DNA from: a virus
Strand: one strand, 5' to 3'
Virus genome (UHGV): UHGV-0123675
Length of the DNA: 42,627 nucleotides
Shown one piece after another: positions 10,998 to 34,032 of this stretch (positions within the stretch are counted from its first letter, which is position 1; the number at the start of each line of letters is the position of its first letter). A model generated the notes under the pieces. It was not told the DNA's origin and did not search any database. It was given only the letters and a program-made list of their open reading frames with translations. Position numbers and translations under genes: made by a program.

Positions 10998-12182
10998 TTA
11001 GTTTTTAACTTTTACTTCTCCAGTTTGAACCTTTGAAGCTAACCATTTGTGCATTTGTAAATATAAGTCATTTTCATCAATAAGTCCATTATTATATTGG
11101 ACATTTATTTTTCCAGATAGTTTCAGATCGCTTCCTTTAATAACCCCTCCACCTTGTAGATTGATGCTGATATCTTCATCATCTAAATTCCGGAGTGATG
11201 TCGCCAAAGTATCGAGCACACGCTGTCCATCTTTATTTGTTTTTCGGAAATAAGTTATTTCTAAGTTGACTTGTAAATTTGACTCGTCAAGAGAATCTTC
11301 AAGTTGTAAATTATTAAACCATCCTTCACCAAAAGCGGCTTTCATTATATCACCGCCTTTTCCTGTAGGCATAAATTTAATCTTTTTGACCTTTTCTAAC
11401 GGTTCCCTAGTATTTACAGGAAGGTCAAGTGGGTCGCTAATGTTTTTTAAAGTTACAACGTCATTTGAATCTGCGTTTTTGATTGGTACACTTCCAAGAT
11501 TTATTTTCTTTACAGGGGACTCGTGCATTTTTCTTATGGTGTCCTCTGTCGGTTTATCTTGAAGGACAAGAAAATCATCACCATTAAAGATGTTGCCGAA
11601 TGAATGTATTAACCAATTCAGATGGTTTTCTATATCCTTAGTTCTAAGGGAAGATGATTGAACGATCATCACGTGATTGTCACGAATGCCAAAGTAAAGT
11701 ATTGAATCAACGAATTCTCTTGTTATTTTTTCTTTGTCATGTTCACTTATTGCATCATCTTCGGCTAGCTTTATCTGCTTCGAAGTTATAGCGTTGATGT
11801 CATAGTAATTGACATCATCAGCGATTGTCATAAGAGTTTGGCTTTTACCCTGCTCAAATAAAATAAGTTGTCCGAATAACACTGTTTTGAATGTACTGCT
11901 TCGGTTTACCATTCTGAAACCGCTGTTACTATCAGAAGGATTAATCTGCTCCCTGCGGGTGCTGACTTTGTGAGCAGTGCCATTCTCAGAAATTATTGAG
12001 TCAATGATCTGCTGAAGCGTTGCTGTGCAGTTAGGAATGACCGCGCGTTTATATTGAATGACCTTGCTGCGACTTTCTTTCATTAGCCTTGTTCCTTGTC
12101 TCGTGAACGTAACCATCTGATTAGGTTGATTTTGTTTTGTTGTAATCAACATGGCTAGTAGACGGTAACTGTCTGTAAACAA
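10998..12182 (-). CDS. Hypothetical protein (394 aa), first gene of cargo operon
   Basis: Long AT-rich ORF, no recognised motif by eye; sits in the Q-to-lysis moron hotspot. Confidence 0.6.
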   Translation of the reverse strand: MFTDSYRLLAMLITTKQNQPNQMVTFTRQGTRLMKESRSKVIQYKRAVIPNCTATLQQIIDSIISENGTAHKVSTRREQINPSDSNSGFRMVNRSSTFKTVLFGQLILFEQGKSQTLMTIADDVNYYDINAITSKQIKLAEDDAISEHDKEKITREFVDSILYFGIRDNHVMIVQSSSLRTKDIENHLNWLIHSFGNIFNGDDFLVLQDKPTEDTIRKMHESPVKKINLGSVPIKNADSNDVVTLKNISDPLDLPVNTREPLEKVKKIKFMPTGKGGDIMKAAFGEGWFNNLQLEDSLDESNLQVNLEITYFRKTNKDGQRVLDTLATSLRNLDDEDISINLQGGGVIKGSDLKLSGKINVQYNNGLIDENDLYLQMHKWLASKVQTGEVKVKN

Positions 12183-25396: not shown

Positions 25397-25951
25397 ATGG
25401 CCGAGCCACTGTTGCTGGGGCGGTATCACGATGCTGTGACTGACGCATTAAAAAAAATCGGATGGGTGCGTGATGCCGGTGCGTATCCGGAAAGAAATGT
25501 TCCCCGCTTTTCGGGCCTGATCACGCCCGCGGTGTATTTCTCGATTAACAGCTGGGAACAGGGCGGAGGAAATGAGGGACAACTCAGCGTTAATTTAACC
25601 TGTGATCTCTTCGTGGTGGTGGATGCCGCCGGGTCGGGTGTGAGTCAGCCTGAAATCTTTGTCAGAACCGCTGCGGCCGATATTACCCAGTGGATTGACG
25701 GGCAGCAGTTTGGTCTGGGCCATATTGAGCCTGCGGTATTCACCACGGCTGAACGCGATGAGTTTGATCCGCGAATGGATGATTATCTGGTCTGGCGTAT
25801 TTCATTCACCCAGGCGGCTGCATTTGGTACTGACCCCTTTGCAAACAATGGCATGCCTCTGAAGCAGTCCTGGCTGGGTGCTGCACCTGATACGGGCCGT
25901 AATCACGTGGATAACTATCAGCTTATCTGGGAGGCTCAGCCCGATGAGTGA
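25397..25951 (+). CDS. Putative tail completion protein (184 aa)
   Basis: ORF immediately upstream of baseplate spike gene; function from position only. Confidence 0.4.
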   Translation: MAEPLLLGRYHDAVTDALKKIGWVRDAGAYPERNVPRFSGLITPAVYFSINSWEQGGGNEGQLSVNLTCDLFVVVDAAGSGVSQPEIFVRTAAADITQWIDGQQFGLGHIEPAVFTTAERDEFDPRMDDYLVWRISFTQAAAFGTDPFANNGMPLKQSWLGAAPDTGRNHVDNYQLIWEAQPDE

Positions 25952-26561
25952 TATCGCAGGCGACCTGCAGCGCAGACTGGCGAACCTTGTCCGGCGCGGC
26001 GTTATCCACTCCGTCAGGCACGATCGCATCCCAAAATGCCGGGTGGATTTGGGGGATATCATCACGACCTGGCTGCCGTTGTGCCAGGGCTTTTCCGGAA
26101 CTAACCGCGCTGATTCAAATCCTTATGCCGTGGGGGATGCGGTTACGGTCCTGTCCGAAGCCGGAGAGCTCAACAACGGACGGGTGTTTCCCGGCTGGAA
26201 CACGGGAAAGCTGCCAGTGCCGGAAGGAAGTGACAGCGAGCACATTACCCGTTACAGCGACGGGACCGAGATCCGTTATGACAGGAACGCGCATGCCCTG
26301 ACGATTACGCTGGCTGATGGTGGAACTTACAAAATTGTCGGTAAAGGCACGCTGGATGGTCCGGTTGAAATTACCGATACCCTGACAGTTCATGGCAAAA
26401 CCCAGATTAATGCCGACACGTCGGTTGCAGGGAATATCGGGGCGTCAAAGGAGATAACGGATAAATCCGGCAGCATGAGCAAGATACGTGAAGTCTTTAA
26501 CAACCACGATCACCGCGGCGACAGCGGCGGGCTCACCGATAAACCTAATCAGAAAATGTGA
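25944..26561 (+). CDS. Baseplate spike protein (P2 gpV-like)
   Basis: C-terminus HNHDHRGDSGGLTDKPN parallels P2 gpV HTHKHPGDSGGTTGSP; start ATG 25944 overlaps upstream stop. Confidence 0.7.
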   Translation: MSDIAGDLQRRLANLVRRGVIHSVRHDRIPKCRVDLGDIITTWLPLCQGFSGTNRADSNPYAVGDAVTVLSEAGELNNGRVFPGWNTGKLPVPEGSDSEHITRYSDGTEIRYDRNAHALTITLADGGTYKIVGKGTLDGPVEITDTLTVHGKTQINADTSVAGNIGASKEITDKSGSMSKIREVFNNHDHRGDSGGLTDKPNQKM

Positions 26562-26582
26562 CCTGCTGCGGCAGGTTTTTTT
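26562..26582 (+). terminator. Hairpin plus T-run (terminator/attenuator-like) upstream of sheath gene
   Basis: CCTGC-tgcg-GCAGG followed by TTTTTTT then GGAG-A-rich-ATG. Confidence 0.45.
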
Positions 26583-26599
26583 ATGCCTGGAGAAAAAAC

Positions 26600-28069
26600 A
26601 TGTCTCAGTTACATGGCGTTGAAACTATTGAACTCACCTCGGGTACGGTGGCGGTTACCACGATTCAGACCGCCATTATCGGCCTGGTGGGAACTGCACC
26701 TGATGCGTCGGGGGGAACAGCCGCATCGGGATCATCCGGTACACCCATTCTAGATAACGTTATCGACTTCACGGCAACCATTAAGGGGCGGGAAGGCAAT
26801 GTCATCAATGTCGCTGCGCTGGCCGGACAGCCGGCAGCCGAAAATCCTGCTGCGGTTGTGACGTCAGCAAGCTGGGATCCTGAATCGCTGACACTGAACA
26901 TCACGCTGGGTTGTGATGAGCACGGTGTTATCACGGCTAAACCTGGAGAAGTTGCTGAGGCTGTCGGTGGTGTTGATGGCGTAAAAATCAGTGCGAGCGG
27001 GCGCGGTGACGGGATTGTCCAGCCCTTCAGCCTGCAATTAGCGGGGGGTGAAGATGAACCCTTTCCACTCAATACGCCGGTGGCGGTCATCGGCACCACG
27101 CTGTTATCCCGCCTGGGTGAAAAAGGTACGCTTAAACAGGCACTGACTGATATTAACGATCAGCGTAATGCGCTGACGGTGGTGGTGCGTGTGGCGGATG
27201 AAAACGATGTGGCAAAACGACGCGCGGCGGTACTGAAGGGGATTGGCACCCTGTCATCAGCGAAATCTGTTACGACGTACCAGCCGCGTATTGTGATTGC
27301 GCCGGAATTCAGTGAGGACGATGCGGTTGGTAAGGGGCTGGAAACCGTGGCCGGGAAATTGCGCGCCGTTGCCTATGTTGACTGCGCCTCCGGTGCGACG
27401 CTGCAGGAAGTGGTACAGCGTCGCCAGTCCTATGGCGCACGAACTGAACTGTTGCGCCCGCGGGTCCAGGCGAGTGATGCAGATGGCCAGCTGGTTTATC
27501 GCCCTTACTCTGCATTTGCTGCCGGATTACGCGCCCGCATCGACTTTGAAAAAGGCTGGTGGTGGAGCAAGTCGAACCAGAACATCAATAACATCCTCGG
27601 TGTTGAGCAGATCGATGAATTTATCCTCGGGGATGAGAACTGCGATGCAAACCTGCTCAACATGCAGAACGTGTCCACCATTATCCGCCGGGCGGGTTTT
27701 AAACACTGGGGGAACCGCCTGTGTGCAACCAATCCTCAGTGGCGTTTTGAATCTGTACGCCGTACAGCTGATGTTATTGAGGACAGCATTCAGGAAACCA
27801 TGCTGGAGTATGTTGACCGCCCACTGGACCGGGAAAATGCGGATGACATTATCGGTACCATCAATGCCTATATGCGGCAACTGGTCGGTCTTGGCGCCAT
27901 ATTCGGTGGGCGGGCCTGGCTGGATGAAGAACTGAACACCGCGGAAACCATGGCGTCGGGTGTCCTGTACATCAACTATGACTTTGGTCCGAAATCGCCG
28001 ACTGAACTTATCAGCCTGCGCGTCCGGGTGAACAATAACTATGCGCTTGAGGAGATGCTTGCAGCATGA
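26600..28069 (+). CDS. Contractile tail sheath protein (P2 FI-like)
   Basis: ~490-aa protein followed directly by FII-like tube gene; start ATG 26600 after GGAGAAAAAAC. Confidence 0.85.
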   Translation: MSQLHGVETIELTSGTVAVTTIQTAIIGLVGTAPDASGGTAASGSSGTPILDNVIDFTATIKGREGNVINVAALAGQPAAENPAAVVTSASWDPESLTLNITLGCDEHGVITAKPGEVAEAVGGVDGVKISASGRGDGIVQPFSLQLAGGEDEPFPLNTPVAVIGTTLLSRLGEKGTLKQALTDINDQRNALTVVVRVADENDVAKRRAAVLKGIGTLSSAKSVTTYQPRIVIAPEFSEDDAVGKGLETVAGKLRAVAYVDCASGATLQEVVQRRQSYGARTELLRPRVQASDADGQLVYRPYSAFAAGLRARIDFEKGWWWSKSNQNINNILGVEQIDEFILGDENCDANLLNMQNVSTIIRRAGFKHWGNRLCATNPQWRFESVRRTADVIEDSIQETMLEYVDRPLDRENADDIIGTINAYMRQLVGLGAIFGGRAWLDEELNTAETMASGVLYINYDFGPKSPTELISLRVRVNNNYALEEMLAA

Positions 28070-28572
28070 GCGATAAAAACACACTACGCGTCTGGACCTT
28101 CTTCCGGCAGGGGATCCGTATTCAGGGGGCGCATGAATTTACGCCGCCGTCTCTGGCTATTGTTAAAACGGATTTGCGTACCGGCGCACAGGATGCGCCA
28201 ACTCCGGTTGATGACGGCATGGAAGCACTGACCTGTCAGGTTAAATTTTATGGGATAGATACGGATATGCTGGCCAGCTTTGGTTTTGTCAGCGGCAGTC
28301 GTTCACGCTTTACGGCTTATCAGGGCTATCTCGGTAACGGCACTGCGCGCGGTACGGTTGAGGAAATCGAGGGGTTTGTACAGACCGTCACGCCGGATGC
28401 GCGCAGTAAGGACACGCTTTCCGAAAATGCCGTGACGGTTGATATTGCCGTCAGCTACTACCGTCAGTCACTGGACGGGCGCGAACTGTTTGCCATCGAC
28501 ACAGAGCGTTTCGCCCGCCGGGTGAATGGCGTTGATGTGCTTTCTGGCCTGGCTGCCAAAGTGCGTCTCTGA
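28066..28572 (+). CDS. Tail tube protein (P2 FII-like)
   Basis: C-terminus YYRQSLDGRELFAIDTERFARRVNGVDVL parallels P2 FII YFRLTMDGKELVEIDTINMIEKVNGVDRL. Confidence 0.85.
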   Translation: MSDKNTLRVWTFFRQGIRIQGAHEFTPPSLAIVKTDLRTGAQDAPTPVDDGMEALTCQVKFYGIDTDMLASFGFVSGSRSRFTAYQGYLGNGTARGTVEEIEGFVQTVTPDARSKDTLSENAVTVDIAVSYYRQSLDGRELFAIDTERFARRVNGVDVLSGLAAKVRL

Positions 28573-28596
28573 TTTTACTGTTATCCCACCACTGTA

Positions 28597-28619
28597 ACGG
28601 CCTGCGGGCCGTTTTTTTA
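28597..28619 (+). terminator. Hairpin plus T-run after tail tube gene
   Basis: ACGGCC-tgcg-GGCCGT followed by TTTTTTTAT. Confidence 0.5.
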
Positions 28620-28630
28620 TGGAGCATCCT

Positions 28631-28930
28631 ATGAGCTTTCCTGGTGAAACCCGCGTTATAAAACTGTATTCCCCCGTATCACTTGATAGCGGGGTTGTGA
28701 TCGATGAAGTCACCATGCGTGAACCGCTGGTTCGCGATCGCATCACTCATGCCAAAGACCGCGGCAACGAAGAAGAGAAAGAAGCCCGCATGATTGCGCT
28801 GCTGTGCAATCTCAGTGAACAGGATCTCTGGCTGATGACGGCGGCAGATTATTCACAGCTGCTGGATGCCTTTAACGTTTTTATGCTCCCGCCCGCGAAG
28901 CGACCGAAGGCGGGCTCCTCCGGGCAATAA
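28631..28930 (+). CDS. Tail assembly chaperone (P2 gpE-like)
   Basis: ~100-aa ORF between tube and tape measure; start ATG 28631 after GGAG (ORF track starts at 28619). Confidence 0.65.
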   Translation: MSFPGETRVIKLYSPVSLDSGVVIDEVTMREPLVRDRITHAKDRGNEEEKEARMIALLCNLSEQDLWLMTAADYSQLLDAFNVFMLPPAKRPKAGSSGQ

Positions 28931-29058
28931 GATTTCTGGGGCGGCGGCTGCATTTTCCGATGGCGGAATACCTTGATATGCCGTTCAGCACTTTCTCTGA
29001 TTTTTTGACTGACGAACTGGAGACGATAAACCGTGGGCGGAATAAGCCAGAACCTTAA
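28631..29058 (+). other. Predicted -1 programmed frameshift product of the tail chaperone (E+E'-like), slip at the T-run near 28878-28884
   Basis: The -1 frame is open from 28876 to a TAA at 29056-29058 and opens exactly at the GTTTTTA run inside the chaperone gene; extension has no start codon of its own. Confidence 0.45.
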
Positions 29059-30958
29059 GGCCGTGATTACCTTTGGCGGGAACCTGGATAATTCATGGAA
29101 ACGATCTGCAGATGGTCTGCAAAAAAGCCTGAAAGATGTCGGAAAGCAGTCTGAACGACTGACAAAAGACCAGACCAGACTGGCAGCAGAAATCAAACGC
29201 GCCAAACTGGCCGGTGAAAGCCTGGGGGATTTGAAGCGCCGCTATACCGATGTTTCCAGGGAAATCCGCAAAACGGAGGCGGAGCAGCAGAAACTGAATG
29301 TACAGATGCAAAAAGCACAGCGCATTCAGGCATTCAAAGGAGCCGGTAAAGGTCTGTTCCGGCGCGGTCTGGGGATCGCCGGGCAGGTGGGCGGGATGTT
29401 TGGATCCGGGTTGGCTATTGGCGGTGGCGGTGTGGTGGCTTCAGCTCTTGGCACACTGATAGCGCCAGCTGCCACCAATGCTGAAACGGCAACCCGCACT
29501 AATGTCGCAAAAAGTTACGGCGTGGACGTGGCCACGTTTAATGCCTGGGATTCTCTGGCGAAGCAGTACGACATGAATGCGGAAAACATTGGCGATCTCT
29601 TTGAAGAGTATCTGCACAAATCCGGAGAGTATAAACAGAACGGTAAGCAGGGCTCGCTGCAGGATGCGTTTGAAACGCTCGGGTTCAAAGCGGGGGATTT
29701 TGCCGGGCTCAACGATATGGCGCAGTTCGACAAAATTGTTGAACGGGCGCTCAGCCTTCAGGACGAGTCAAAAGCCTCCTTCGCACTGGATTCTCTTTTT
29801 GGCGGGGAAGCGAGCAAACTGCTGATGCTTATCAAGCAGTCTGGCCGGAGCTACCGCGACCTGATGGACGAACAGCGGCGCTACAACCTTGTGACCAAAG
29901 AGGGGGCAGATGGGGCGGTTGCAGGGAATCAGGCTATCAATAATCTCCGCACTGTTTTCTCTTCTGCGGTTGCTGAAATTTCCGGGCAACTGGGAAATGA
30001 GCTTGCGCCTGATATCCGTAATCTGACGAATGATCTTGCCGACTGGTTCAAAGGTGGCGGGATCAAACGCATTGTGACTTTCCTGCGAAACGACCTTTAT
30101 CCCGGCGTTCTGTCGTTCGGGCAGGGGGTGGTTTTTGTCGGCAAAATTATTTACGCGCTGGCTAAAAAACTGTCCTGGTTGCTGCCGGATGAACGAAATG
30201 ATCAGCGCGATGTACTGAAAACACTGGCTGGTAATGGAATGAATATGGCTCGCCTCCGAGCTGAGCAGACAGGCCAGGGAGAATGGTTTACGCAGCAACT
30301 GGCAATTCATCCTGACTTGCCAGAAAAAGTAAAAGAGTCATGGAATGATACCCGCGGATGGTTCGGTCCTGACAGCGACGATGAGGCGTTTAACAAATCG
30401 CTTGATAAATACCTGTCACCGGAAGGCGGCGATTCGCTTTTAAACTGGAATGCGGCGCTACAGCAAAACAAGGACCATGTAGCGCAAACCGTTAAAGAGG
30501 ACCCGGAAAGCAGTGCCGAAGCCAGGGATAATTACGCGCATGAGCCGGTAACGTTTGCCAGTCAGTGGAAAAGAGAGCCATCAGGGCTGACGGACAGCCT
30601 GGGGGAAGGAGAAAGCGCCCGCGCAGGGGATAAGTATCCGAATGATCTCCTTCTTCCCGTCGTGCAGCAGGACAGGAATGTTACGACAACAAACAGATCA
30701 CCTGCTGAGCCGGTCATTTTGAAAGACGAGAGCACGGGTGGTTACTGGGAAAGCCTGCTTCAAAAAATGGATGTACTGGATAAGCAGCCGCCATCACGGC
30801 AGATAACTGATAACCGCAAATTTGAATACCACTTCGAAATTAATGCTGCGCCGGGACAGGATGAGAAAGCCATTGCCGATGAAGTGACCACGGTGACGAA
30901 AAACAATTCTGCTTTTAATGGTGATAACAGCCTTCTGGATGGGGGACTTGTCTGGTGA
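29033..30958 (+). CDS. Tail tape measure protein
   Basis: 641-aa Gly/Ala-rich, coiled-coil-prone protein after chaperone gene; GTG start. Confidence 0.85.
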   Translation: MGGISQNLKAVITFGGNLDNSWKRSADGLQKSLKDVGKQSERLTKDQTRLAAEIKRAKLAGESLGDLKRRYTDVSREIRKTEAEQQKLNVQMQKAQRIQAFKGAGKGLFRRGLGIAGQVGGMFGSGLAIGGGGVVASALGTLIAPAATNAETATRTNVAKSYGVDVATFNAWDSLAKQYDMNAENIGDLFEEYLHKSGEYKQNGKQGSLQDAFETLGFKAGDFAGLNDMAQFDKIVERALSLQDESKASFALDSLFGGEASKLLMLIKQSGRSYRDLMDEQRRYNLVTKEGADGAVAGNQAINNLRTVFSSAVAEISGQLGNELAPDIRNLTNDLADWFKGGGIKRIVTFLRNDLYPGVLSFGQGVVFVGKIIYALAKKLSWLLPDERNDQRDVLKTLAGNGMNMARLRAEQTGQGEWFTQQLAIHPDLPEKVKESWNDTRGWFGPDSDDEAFNKSLDKYLSPEGGDSLLNWNAALQQNKDHVAQTVKEDPESSAEARDNYAHEPVTFASQWKREPSGLTDSLGEGESARAGDKYPNDLLLPVVQQDRNVTTTNRSPAEPVILKDESTGGYWESLLQKMDVLDKQPPSRQITDNRKFEYHFEINAAPGQDEKAIADEVTTVTKNNSAFNGDNSLLDGGLVW

Positions 30959-31425
30959 GTGAAATTATCCCGATATTTGAAGATTCCGGCCAGCGCAGTG
31001 CAGGCGCATTACGGGGTGGGCAGGAAGCCCGCGTCATGATGATGCTGGGGAATTTCGCCTTTTCGATTGATACAGCGGCTTATCATCAGCTCACCCGTGA
31101 GGCCAGCTGGCGCTGGAGTGAACAGGAACGCATCGGCAAACAGGACCTTCTTCAGTACACCGGAAAGCCCGGGCGTACTGTCAGGCTCGAAGGGCAGTCT
31201 CACGCCTTTTTCCGTAAAGGGGTGGAAGGGGTGAATGATTTATTTGATCTTGCCGAACAGGCGAAACCGCAGCAGCTTGTCAGCGGAGAGGGCGATGTAC
31301 TGGGGTGGTGGGTGGTGACCGACTTTTCAGACACGACGAGTAAGTTTTTACCGGGTGGTGGTCACCGAAATAAAAACTGGACGATGACGCTAAAACACTA
31401 TGCCGACGATCTATCAAACCCGTGA
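30955..31425 (+). CDS. Tail protein (P2 gpU-like)
   Basis: Internal MMMLGNFAFS... resembles P2 gpU N-terminus (MMMLG); true start may be ATG 31036. Confidence 0.7.
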   Translation: MSEIIPIFEDSGQRSAGALRGGQEARVMMMLGNFAFSIDTAAYHQLTREASWRWSEQERIGKQDLLQYTGKPGRTVRLEGQSHAFFRKGVEGVNDLFDLAEQAKPQQLVSGEGDVLGWWVVTDFSDTTSKFLPGGGHRNKNWTMTLKHYADDLSNP

Positions 31426-31615
31426 CGGAGATGTACTGGATGCAATTTGTGCCGTGCATTACGGTACTGAAAATCTTTCAGACTCAGTGACTCAGGTTCT
31501 TGAAGCCAATCAGGGGCTGGCGGATAAGGGGGCTATGTATCCTTCCGGCCTGTATATCACACTGCCGGATCTGGTGACGCCTGTAGCGGAATCGCCATTC
31601 AGTTTATGGGATTGA
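31400..31615 (+). CDS. Tail protein X (P2 gpX-like, LysM-like)
   Basis: GDVLDAICAVHYG...VLEANQGLA resembles P2 gpX GDTLDAICVRYYG...VLAANPGLA. Confidence 0.75.
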   Translation: MPTIYQTRDGDVLDAICAVHYGTENLSDSVTQVLEANQGLADKGAMYPSGLYITLPDLVTPVAESPFSLWD

Positions 31616-31616
31616 T

Positions 31617-32735
31617 ATGGCAGATCAGACAGCGATGCCGGAATATGCTCCGGCTTTCAGCATTCAGGCCGAAGGGAAAGATATAACCCGGGTGCTGCAA
31701 CAATGCCTGAGTGAACTGACCCTGACGGATTATGGTGGGGCAACAGCGAAAGCCGATGAACTGAAAATCAGCCTCATCTCTGAAACGCTGGCGCTTCCCA
31801 CTAAAGGTGCCCGGCTTCGGGTTGCTCTGGGATTCAATGACCAACTGATCGATAAAGGCTGGTTTGTTGTCAGTGGTGTCTCGAGCAGCGGCCCGCCGAG
31901 GCGTATTGAGCTTTATGCGACCGCCGCGCCGATGAACGCCCAGAAACAACCCGGAGATGTGACAAGCCAGAAAACCCGGAGCTGGGATAACCTTCGCCTT
32001 GCCGATATTGTCAAAACAGTGGCCACCGATAACGGACTTATTCCCCGCGTGGCCGACGCGCTCAAAGATATTCATATCAATCACATCGATCAGGTGGCGG
32101 AATCCGATGCCAACCTGCTCGCAAGGCTTGCACGTGACTACAACGCAGTGAGCAAACCATCGGGAGGCTACTGGCTTTTTTTACAGCAGGGGGCCACGGC
32201 AACGGCTTCAGGAAAACAGACTGGCGGGATCACCATCACACCGGATGAAGTATCAAACTGGTCCTACAGTGAAGGTGAGCGGGGGAGTTCGACGGGGAAA
32301 GCTGCGGGGAGCGGAGGTAAAGCCAAAGAGAAAATCGGCGTGCGTTATTACGACGAGGAGGACGGCACGACAAAGACCTCCTCTGTTGAACATGATGGCC
32401 CGGCGATGACCAATCCCTATACCCAGTCGGAGAAAAACACCGCCGAGCAACAGGCAAACTCCAGGAAAACACAGGCGAAGCGTAACGAGCAGAAAATGAC
32501 GCTCACGGGGCCATGTCGCCCTAAACATGTTCCGCTGACAGCAGAAGCAGGTGTGTCGACTTCCGGTTTTGGTTCCCGTGAGGATCGGGCCTGGGTGGTT
32601 GAGTCTCTGGTCTTTTCTCTGACGTCAGCAGGATTCAGCTACACCTACAACCTTGTCGTGGATATTCGTAAACCCGCAGCGGCTTCGAAAAAATCAGAAA
32701 AGCAGGACAAAAAAGGCCCGTCCTACTTCGGTTAA
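31617..32735 (+). CDS. Tail protein D (P2 gpD-like late control/baseplate hub protein)
   Basis: 372-aa protein following U and X genes, size and position of gpD. Confidence 0.75.
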   Translation: MADQTAMPEYAPAFSIQAEGKDITRVLQQCLSELTLTDYGGATAKADELKISLISETLALPTKGARLRVALGFNDQLIDKGWFVVSGVSSSGPPRRIELYATAAPMNAQKQPGDVTSQKTRSWDNLRLADIVKTVATDNGLIPRVADALKDIHINHIDQVAESDANLLARLARDYNAVSKPSGGYWLFLQQGATATASGKQTGGITITPDEVSNWSYSEGERGSSTGKAAGSGGKAKEKIGVRYYDEEDGTTKTSSVEHDGPAMTNPYTQSEKNTAEQQANSRKTQAKRNEQKMTLTGPCRPKHVPLTAEAGVSTSGFGSREDRAWVVESLVFSLTSAGFSYTYNLVVDIRKPAAASKKSEKQDKKGPSYFG

Positions 32736-32774
32736 CCCTCCCGCCATCCGGCGACTCAGCAACGGAATTTAATC

Positions 32775-33128
32775 ATGAACGGTGTAAACAACCGGACCGG
32801 AAAACGCCTGTCCGGCGTCGCCCATTTGCGGCAGTCCGTCAGCGACATACTGACCACTCCCATCGGGAGCCGGGTTCTTGTTCGGGACTATGGCAGTGAT
32901 CTGTTTTCGCTGGTGGATAACCCCCGGGATGATTTGACCCGACTACAAATAATCGCTGCGTCTGCGACCGCACTGGCCCGGTGGGAGACGCGGCTGAAGG
33001 TAACACGTGTGCTTGTTTCCTTTCCTGAAGGGGAGTCCGGCTGTGTGCTGGATATCGAGGGGATCAACAAGGAAACCAATTTACCTGTCAGAACGGGAGA
33101 CATAACGATTTATGGCAAGCAGCTATGA
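32775..33128 (+). CDS. Baseplate assembly protein W (gp25/gpW-like)
   Basis: 117-aa protein with DILTTPIGSRVLVRDYGSDLFSLVDNP motif characteristic of gpW/gp25 family. Confidence 0.8.
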   Translation: MNGVNNRTGKRLSGVAHLRQSVSDILTTPIGSRVLVRDYGSDLFSLVDNPRDDLTRLQIIAASATALARWETRLKVTRVLVSFPEGESGCVLDIEGINKETNLPVRTGDITIYGKQL

Positions 33129-34032
33129 CGTGATCAACCTGTCCGAACTGGACGTACCGGATGCCATTGTGGTGCCTGATGCAACTGAAATCTTCACCCG
33201 GTGGCTGGTGCGGCTGAGGGAACTTGATAAGCAGTTTGATGCGCTGGTGGAATCCGATCCGACGTTTAAACAGGGGGAGGTGAATGCCTACCAGCTGACG
33301 CTGGCGTTTCAGCGGGTTAATGATGCCGTGCGGGCGGTATTTCTCGCGAGTGCAAAAGAGGCTGACCTTGACCAGATAGGTGCCGCATTCAACGTTAAAC
33401 GGCAGGTTATTAAGCCCGGAGATCCGCTTGCCATTCCGCCAGTGGAGCCTGAACTGGAAGACGATGCGGCATTTCGTGAACGTATCCAGCTTTCATGGGC
33501 GCAGCTGAATACAGCAGGCGCGCGCAACTCATACCGCTTTCATGCGAAGTCTGCCGATACGGATGTGCTGGATGCCGATGCCTATGGGCCGGAAACCCAT
33601 AACCGGCCCGGCTACGTTGATGTCTATGTCCTGTCACGTACCGGGGATGGGGCGGCGGGGCAGCCCCTGCTTGATAAGGTTAACAGCACACTGAATGCGG
33701 ATGAAATCCGCCCGTTAACGGACTACGTGACGGTTAAAAGTGCCACGATTGCAAACTATGCCGTTACGGCAGAGCTGGAGATCCCGGAAGGACCAGACGC
33801 CAGTACGGTGCTGAATAATGCCATCGATGTTTTACGGTCATACACCACGCTTTCCCATCGGATTAAAACCGTCGTCCCGTTATCCGCCATTTATGCCGCG
33901 CTGCAGCAATCCGGTGTGGTCCGGGTAAGGCTGATTTCTCCGGTAGCAGATCTGGAAGCGGAACCGGGTAAAGCGCCCTGGTGTACCGCCATTAATGTCA
34001 CCCGCAGGGAGGTAAGCAGCAATGACGGCTAA
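33112..34032 (+). CDS. Baseplate assembly protein J (P2 gpJ-like)
   Basis: 306-aa protein; RVNDAVRAV, DVYVLSR, LSAIYAALQ segments parallel P2 gpJ. Confidence 0.85.
   Translation: MASSYDVINLSELDVPDAIVVPDATEIFTRWLVRLRELDKQFDALVESDPTFKQGEVNAYQLTLAFQRVNDAVRAVFLASAKEADLDQIGAAFNVKRQVIKPGDPLAIPPVEPELEDDAAFRERIQLSWAQLNTAGARNSYRFHAKSADTDVLDADAYGPETHNRPGYVDVYVLSRTGDGAAGQPLLDKVNSTLNADEIRPLTDYVTVKSATIANYAVTAELEIPEGPDASTVLNNAIDVLRSYTTLSHRIKTVVPLSAIYAALQQSGVVRVRLISPVADLEAEPGKAPWCTAINVTRREVSSNDG

Follow-up and report, generated by a model that had tools for sequence, protein, structure and literature searches.

Does the gene between the tube and tape-measure genes of this phage encode a single tail assembly chaperone, or does a second, longer product arise from it by recoding? 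The original prediction had placed a programmed -1 ribosomal frameshift in a chaperone gene of UHGV virus genome UHGV-0123675, a sequence of 42,627 nt (hereafter, the window). Based on the comparison with related loci, we consider it highly probable that such a frameshift generates an extended chaperone, join(28631..28882, 28882..29058). This reading is supported by the position of the gene, its PF10109 domain, a start-less extension under selection and an invariant slip motif. The predicted fusion has 142 aa, the same length as P2 gpE+E', and thereby agrees with the initial estimate of about 140 aa and the size of P2 E+E'.

The chaperone gene and its open -1 frame

ORFs and Pfam matches define a block of contractile-tail genes on the + strand of the window. 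Pfam and PHROG matches give the gene order sheath, tube, chaperone (PF10109), tape measure, gpU, X and gpD. The chaperone gene thus lies directly between the tube gene and the tape-measure gene, which is the expected position for a frameshifted chaperone pair. The features considered here are as follows.

26558-28069, + strand: sheath gene (PF04984/PF17482)
28066-28572, + strand: tube gene (PF04985)
28631-28930, + strand: chaperone gene, zero-frame product, analogue of P2 gpE (ORF, Pfam, PHROG, RefSeq)
28879-28882, + strand: proposed -1 slip site, tetramer U_UUU (invariance in sequence and phase)
28882-29058, + strand: putative extension in the -1 frame with 58 codons (first codon TAT 28882) and the stop TAA 29056-58 (translation, conservation, selection)
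28883-28930, + strand: putative dual-coding zone (synonymous rate depressed in both frames)
29033-30958, + strand: tape-measure gene, 641 aa (ORF, PHROG tape-measure families)

The chaperone ORF extends from ATG 28631 to TAA 28928-30, and its 99-aa product matches Phage_TAC_7 (PF10109) over residues 10-85 with 38.1 bits (cut-off 25; E 1.6e-9), a family that Pfam describes as 'Phage tail assembly chaperone proteins, E, or 41 or 14'. PF10109 is also present in every close homologue from the databases. Furthermore, the product matches PHROG 166 'tail protein' at 5e-23, and RefSeq labels the gene in E. coli SC476, with a start identical to that of our ORF, as 'phage tail assembly protein'. A NCBIfam scan of the chaperone, the fusion and the extension gave no match. 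For the tape-measure product, PHROG matches to tape-measure families were obtained at 1.6e-16, 3.4e-10 and weaker values; its gene starts at GTG 29033 (ATG in some relatives) and shares the reading frame of the chaperone gene.

Several features of the surrounding module were also recorded. A hairpin resembling a terminator (AACGGCC-TGCG-GGCCGTT, with a T run behind it) is located at 28596-28618, within the 58 nt that separate the tube gene stop from the chaperone start. It was found in 14 of 15 related loci, and in Providencia (GCGACC/GGTCGC) and Erwinia (GCAGCC/GGCTGC) its stem is changed on both sides yet kept. The hairpin is probably an attenuator that lowers expression of the chaperone and tape measure relative to sheath and tube. 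The wider tail order at 25878-34032 (gpV-like spike, sheath, tube, chaperone, tape measure, gpU, X, gpD, gpW-like, gpJ-like) is a mosaic common to Citrobacter phage Chris1 and unlike that of P2, whose baseplate genes V, W and J form a separate operon upstream. On the contig of the most distant relative, Rouxiella sp. T17 (L103 1-1500), two small ORFs (59 and 63 aa) without Pfam match lie upstream of the chaperone and no sheath-tube pair was called there; the tail module of this strain may be rearranged or degraded.

The positions of the stops in the -1 frame (position mod 3 = 1) agree with those given in the original prediction. The frame is closed by TAA 28873-28875, opens at 28876 and stays open past the chaperone stop until the next stop, TAA 29056-29058. 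The 60 sense codons between the two stops begin with RFYAPAREATEGG and end with NKPEP (full translation: RFYAPAREATEGGLLRAIRFLGRRLHFPMAEYLDMPFSTFSDFLTDELETINRGRNKPEP), and the overlap of the zero and -1 frames is 52 nt. At its downstream end, the -1 ORF overlaps the tape-measure start as predicted, ending 24 nt inside that gene. The fusion stop is thus situated within the tape-measure initiation region, so that termination there could lead to translational coupling or interference.

How unusual is such an open frame by chance? Open runs of at least 60 codons make up 0.8% of the -1-frame runs inside genes of the window, and a geometric estimate gives P of about 0.015 for a 60-codon run (stop frequency 0.068). 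This within-gene control was used instead of an open-frame control across gene ends, which is confounded by overlapping downstream genes. Since in-phase T_TTT occurs 24 times in 4784 codons, and given these run-length odds, the sequence of the window alone is only suggestive. The comparative data described below, in contrast, carry the -1 ORF well beyond chance.

According to the proposed mechanism, most ribosomes would reach the chaperone stop and produce a 99-aa chaperone like P2 gpE, while a minority would slip back one nucleotide on U_UUU. The tRNA-Phe on UUU 28880-82 would re-pair with UUU 28879-81, and the slipped ribosomes, next reading TAT 28882, would remain in the -1 frame until TAA 29056-58. 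The predicted product (...LDAFNVF-YAPAREATEGG...NKPEP) would correspond to P2 gpE+E' and lambda gpGT. If these systems are taken as a guide, the shared N-terminal part may bind the tape-measure protein and the extension may recruit tail tube subunits, in which case a fixed low ratio of long to short form would be built into translation. Predicted GluC/AspN peptides are AFNVFYAPARE for the fusion junction and AFNVFMLPPAKRPK... for the short form. An AlphaFold2 model of the single fusion sequence was poor (mean pLDDT 54, pTM 0.37).

Conservation and selection across relatives

Our comparison included as close relatives Citrobacter phage Chris1 (97.9% identical) and the E. coli SC476 prophage (99.5% identical), and as more distant ones three other E. 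coli prophages and Hafnia phage yong2 (68% DNA identity). This sample was extended by 15 loci from Citrobacter, Enterobacter, Scandinavium, Pantoea, Providencia, Izhakiella, Erwinia and Tatumella, by 80 IMG/VR contigs, and by Mixta and Rouxiella loci. The arrangement persists in about 100 related loci, which represent some ten genera of enterobacteria and have protein identities as low as 54%. In every locus, a -1 ORF of 59-90 codons that spans the chaperone stop is retained, and its extension shares the conserved core LRAIRFLGRRLHFxMxDYLDMPFSTF.

Past the chaperone stop, pairwise diversity in the extension is 0.29, 0.13 and 0.48 at -1-frame codon positions 1, 2 and 3, respectively. In the same stretch pN/pS is 0.31 for the -1 frame compared to 0.96 and 2.33 for the other two frames, which carry stops in most loci. 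A second sample gave pN/pS values of 0.39 for the extension and 0.24 for the chaperone at similar synonymous divergence (0.61 and 0.66). Judged by these substitutions, the stretch after the E stop evolves as protein, and it does so in the -1 frame only. A Mu-style -2/+1 shift was rejected, as the -2/+1 frame has stops and a pN/pS above 2. Because the extension is under selection and has no conserved start, it is a real coding sequence that can be reached only from the chaperone frame.

Between the slip site and the chaperone stop, both frames appear to be constrained. In the zone at 28883-28930, where the zero frame reads MLPPAKRPKAGSSGQ (the C-terminal tail of the short chaperone) and the -1 frame YAPAREATEGGLLRAI, pS is 0.40 and 0.23 for the two frames versus 0.61-0.66 in the flanking single-coding parts. 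By this measure, the zone behaves as a true dual-coding stretch. The zero-frame tail past the slip site, MLPPxKRPK, was also seen to be conserved.

The slip site and competing explanations

The position of the frame change can be confined from both sides. The shift must take place after TAA 28873-75, and the earliest chaperone stop among the homologues, at codon 96, sets the upper limit at window position 28916. Within this zone, the -1-frame Tyr (28882-84) and Ala (28891-93) are invariant and Ala 28885-87 is nearly so. Moreover, Arg at 28894-96 was kept in the -1 frame through a CGC-to-AGA double change in two lineages, which indicates that the -1 frame is already read by about 28894.

The original prediction had noted that the -1 frame opens exactly at the run GTTTTTA. 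This run is indeed located there (28877-28883), with five T at 28878-82, but it is out of phase as an X_XXY_YYZ heptamer: since the zero-frame codons at the site are AAC GTT TTT ATG, it contains no such heptamer in phase. The in-phase motif is instead C_GUU_UUU (context C_GUU_UUU_AUG), in which the zero-frame TTT 28880-82 is preceded by T 28879. In 21 genome and phage loci (Citrobacter, Escherichia, Enterobacter, Scandinavium, Pantoea, Providencia, Izhakiella, Erwinia, Tatumella and Hafnia phage yong2) and 80 IMG/VR loci, 101 in total, GTTTTTATG is invariant in both sequence and phase. In the Rouxiella relative (54% protein identity), the codons are AAC CGT TTT ATG, so that the run is reduced to TTTT and only T_TTT is kept, again in phase. 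T_TTT is thus in phase in every locus examined, Rouxiella included, and this tetramer is the sole conserved slippery element.

Part of the invariance of the motif, at T 28882 and the following A, T and G, can be explained by dual coding too. A change at position 28879, on the other hand, would be silent in the chaperone frame, and the position precedes the first translated -1 codon. Nevertheless, in a non-redundant set of 31 sequences, all below 97% mutual identity, this third base of the Val GTT codon is the same throughout, whereas the third positions of the codons before it have a diversity of 0.40-0.67. Conservation of synonymous sites therefore begins exactly at 28879. One protein from a contig of 996 bases (P0058) has four instead of five T at the equivalent of 28878-28882, and its chaperone reads into the +1 frame (...FNVLCSRPRS...); this reflects either a homopolymer sequencing error or a natural indel.

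Slippage at this site would involve a single tRNA. The P-site codon cannot re-pair, as GUU would meet CGU and, in Rouxiella, CGU would meet CCG, which leaves tRNA-Phe as the only tRNA that could do so. In the Atkins review (PMC5009743), Z_ZZN is given as the minimal motif for -1 shifting, and U_UUU has this form, with three identical bases before the third base of the A-site codon and cognate re-pairing. In E. coli, U_UUU ranks third among 16 tetramers (A_AAG >> U_UUC > U_UUU > C_CCY > A_AAA; Sharma et al. 2014, PMC4066793), and U_UUY serves in IS elements (PMC4066793). In the same study, bare tetramers in reporters gave 0.147% frameshifting versus a background of 0.112%, and tetramers reached 0.26-5.6% only with a strong IS3 pseudoknot (PMC4066793). 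We infer that the frame change is ribosomal and occurs on U_UUU.

A search for a downstream stimulatory structure had been suggested along with the original prediction, and fold, consensus and covariation tests found no conserved one. The 84 nt and 43 nt downstream of the site folded no more stably than shuffled sequences in the window and 11 relatives (z -1.2 to +1.9). RNAalifold on 17 sequences returned only a hairpin of -4 kcal/mol that includes the T run itself, and the consensus fold of 21 non-redundant sequences (0 to -0.8 kcal/mol) was no better than that of column shuffles. No conserved hairpin was found 5-9 nt 3' of the slip site, nor a pseudoknot in a non-exhaustive search, and an Rfam scan of 28400-29300 (E up to 1) returned nothing. 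Two candidate stems, GCCCG/CGGGC (28891-95 with 28921-25) and CCGCCC/GGGCGG (28889-94 with 28939-44), were rejected because they show no compensatory change and are lost in several loci (broken in 3-7 of 17 sequences). A further downstream candidate, CCCGCC/GGCGGG, was considered and not separately counted, and a mini-hairpin, CGC-GAA-GCG, is not conserved.

In most loci, a Shine-Dalgarno-like sequence, GGA(U/G), precedes the site by 12-13 nt. A role for it as stimulator is unsupported: it falls within a conserved Asp/Glu codon, Izhakiella and Tatumella lack it, and synonymous sites around it vary. Upstream synonymous sites in general vary freely and thus give no signal of an upstream stimulator. 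Of the two hallmarks of canonical -1 frameshifting, an in-phase heptamer and a 3' stimulatory structure, we therefore found neither. Since no stimulator was found, the efficiency of the frameshift may be low.

Four alternatives to a ribosomal frameshift on U_UUU were weighed, and even taken jointly they are improbable. The -1 ORF might be translated separately, without any frameshift, from the in-frame ATG at 28960 (MAEYLDMPF..., 32 aa) or from a non-canonical start; such stand-alone calls do exist, namely a CDS of 39 aa in Hafnia phage yong2 as well as P0070, P0073, P0075 and P0077. However, Met 28960 is not conserved, as Citrobacter-like, Providencia, Izhakiella, Erwinia and Tatumella loci encode Leu, Val or Phe at this position, and by eye no Shine-Dalgarno-like sequence precedes it. 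Moreover, the best-conserved block, IRFLGRRLHF, is encoded upstream of 28960, with no ATG, GTG or TTG between 28876 and that position, and the retention of Arg through CGC to AGA places -1-frame constraint already at 28894-96. Separate translation is thus very unlikely. Transcriptional slippage on T5, in which the polymerase drops one U or adds two, would yield the fusion from a minority of the mRNA, and a homopolymeric run is indeed present exactly at the junction. Productive slippage by bacterial RNA polymerase, however, requires runs of about 7-9 A or T, compared to 5 T here and 4 T in Rouxiella. Furthermore, the run strictly keeps its phase with respect to the reading frame, a feature that ribosomal slippage needs and polymerase slippage does not. 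Although transcriptional slippage is a known route to such products (PMC5009743), we give it an equally slim chance at this locus.

The shift could also occur at another point of the 52-nt overlap, such as C_CCG (28888-91), which is in phase in the window and produced frameshifting 1.8- to 3.6-fold over background in the tetramer study (PMC4066793). The base before CCG varies among C, G, A and T (CTC, CTG, CTA, CTT, TTA), so that this motif is not conserved. In addition, since Tyr and Ala at 28882-87 are invariant or nearly so in the -1 frame, these residues are expected to be translated, and a shift beyond them is even less probable than the previous two explanations. The lowest probability goes to the absence of any recoding, with the open -1 frame as a chance by-product of a conserved non-coding spacer or tape-measure initiation region. 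The region is annotated as intergenic in every record examined, and the estimate of about 0.015 for a 60-codon run is by itself only modest evidence; yet the three-base periodicity of substitutions and a pN/pS of 0.31-0.39 in exactly one frame effectively refute this explanation, and the -1 frame is stop-free in about 100 loci in most of which the other frames have stops.

Relation to known systems and missed annotation

A programmed -1 frameshift on U_UUU would place this locus next to two classical pairs of chaperones. The pair gpE and gpE+E' of P2 was reportedly described by Christie et al. in 2002, and the pair gpG and gpGT of lambda is said to have been characterised by Levin et al. in 1993 and Xu et al. 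in 2004, 2013 and 2014. As in the present locus, the P2 gene (GenBank AF063097) lies between the tube and tape-measure genes and encodes an N-terminal PF10109 domain, and its -1 extension, starting a few codons ahead of the stop of E, runs until shortly after the tape-measure start. In contrast to P2, where the annotated -1 shift occurs at the canonical T_TTT_TTG (GGT TTT TTG), the site here is C_GTT_TTT, in which only the tetramer re-pairs. The tail gene order around the module differs as well.

The designation of the gene as E/E'-type in the original prediction thus holds for the architecture and the N-terminal domain, but the extension is not detectable as Phage_P2_GpE. P2 E' matches PF06528 at 2.2e-22, whereas a Pfam scan of nine extensions from the present lineage found no match to PF06528 at E values up to 10. 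When a profile of 13 fusions was compared to P2 gpE+E' with hhalign, the two aligned collinearly (residues 7-122 with 4-126) with their shift points opposite each other, at a weak score (E 0.015, probability 2.9%). The extension profile alone aligned with P2 E' over 15 columns, which is not significant (E 0.12).

Lambda shares the logic of a chaperone and a rarer frameshift-extended form encoded just upstream of the tape-measure gene. It has a siphovirus tail and is compared here by logic, as similarity in sequence is not expected; its slip heptamer is G_GGA_AAG. The molar ratio of gpG to gpGT is about 30:1 and neither protein occurs in the virion, as stated in the Atkins review (PMC5009743). 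In Mu, gp41 is named in the description of PF10109, and its gene likewise lies between the tube and tape-measure genes and uses a non-canonical frameshift. A difference is that a verified -2 shift is annotated for Mu gp41/Mu_56, whereas the conserved extension here is in the -1 frame. Non-canonical shifts were therefore already known in this class of chaperone genes.

With regard to the slip site itself, the closest parallels are Z_ZZN sites such as U_UUU and U_UUC in IS1/IS3-family elements and A_CGA_AAG in Bacillus cdd, where, as here, one tRNA re-pairs wholly or mainly. G_GUU_UUC of T7 gene 10, listed as an intermediate site in the Atkins review (PMC5009743), likewise has GUU as 5' codon followed by UUY. 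According to the same review, the T7 shift depends on a distant 3' element (PMC5009743). While the tetramer reporters needed a strong 3' pseudoknot and T7 gene 10 such a distant element, we identified no stimulator here. It is a speculative possibility, which we consider unlikely, that a bare U_UUU suffices without any mRNA stimulator and, separately, that the extension founds a domain family of its own with no sequence relation to P2 E'. If the former is true, it would point to an unrecognised stimulatory input or to a long-to-short ratio far below that of lambda or P2; candidate inputs would be the nascent peptide (...LDAFNVF), the invariant AUG/CCG-CCN context that comes next, or some factor from phage or host.

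Gene callers were expected to miss this recoding event, and in fact none of seven annotated records or gene-call tables carries the fusion. In a word-indexed search of a 5.8-billion-sequence protein collection with the 142-aa fusion, no entry covered more than 69% of it. An exhaustive phmmer search with the 60-codon extension against 1.84 billion representatives gave 10 matches, among which we found no in-frame natural fusion and no outside family. Eight of the 10 are short versions of this -1 ORF that were called on their own or mis-assembled; the remaining two (P0074 and P0076) are long repetitive proteins and were judged spurious. Stand-alone 'hypothetical proteins' that correspond to fragments of the -1 extension include the yong2 CDS at 11466-11585 (L005 2859-2978), P0066, P0070, P0075 and P0077. 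Such fragments begin at arbitrary internal codons and are artefacts of the missed frameshift. A literature search for phages Chris1 and yong2 gave nothing on the chaperone gene.

Overall, the known picture of tail assembly chaperones is unchanged, and the recoding is of a known kind. What is new is an unannotated case with a non-canonical slip site and an extension without recognisable family. A predicted essential tail product is absent from all records of this lineage, including those of Chris1, yong2 and the RefSeq E. coli prophages, and some records contain a spurious small ORF in place of the extension; the join given above corrects this. The locus would represent a natural, conserved -1 shift on the single-tRNA tetramer U_UUU without detectable stimulator, a type of site that heptamer-based genome screens, as in PMC4066793, would miss. 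It may therefore serve as a simple system to study the lowest frameshift rate that tail assembly tolerates, or what else stimulates slippage.
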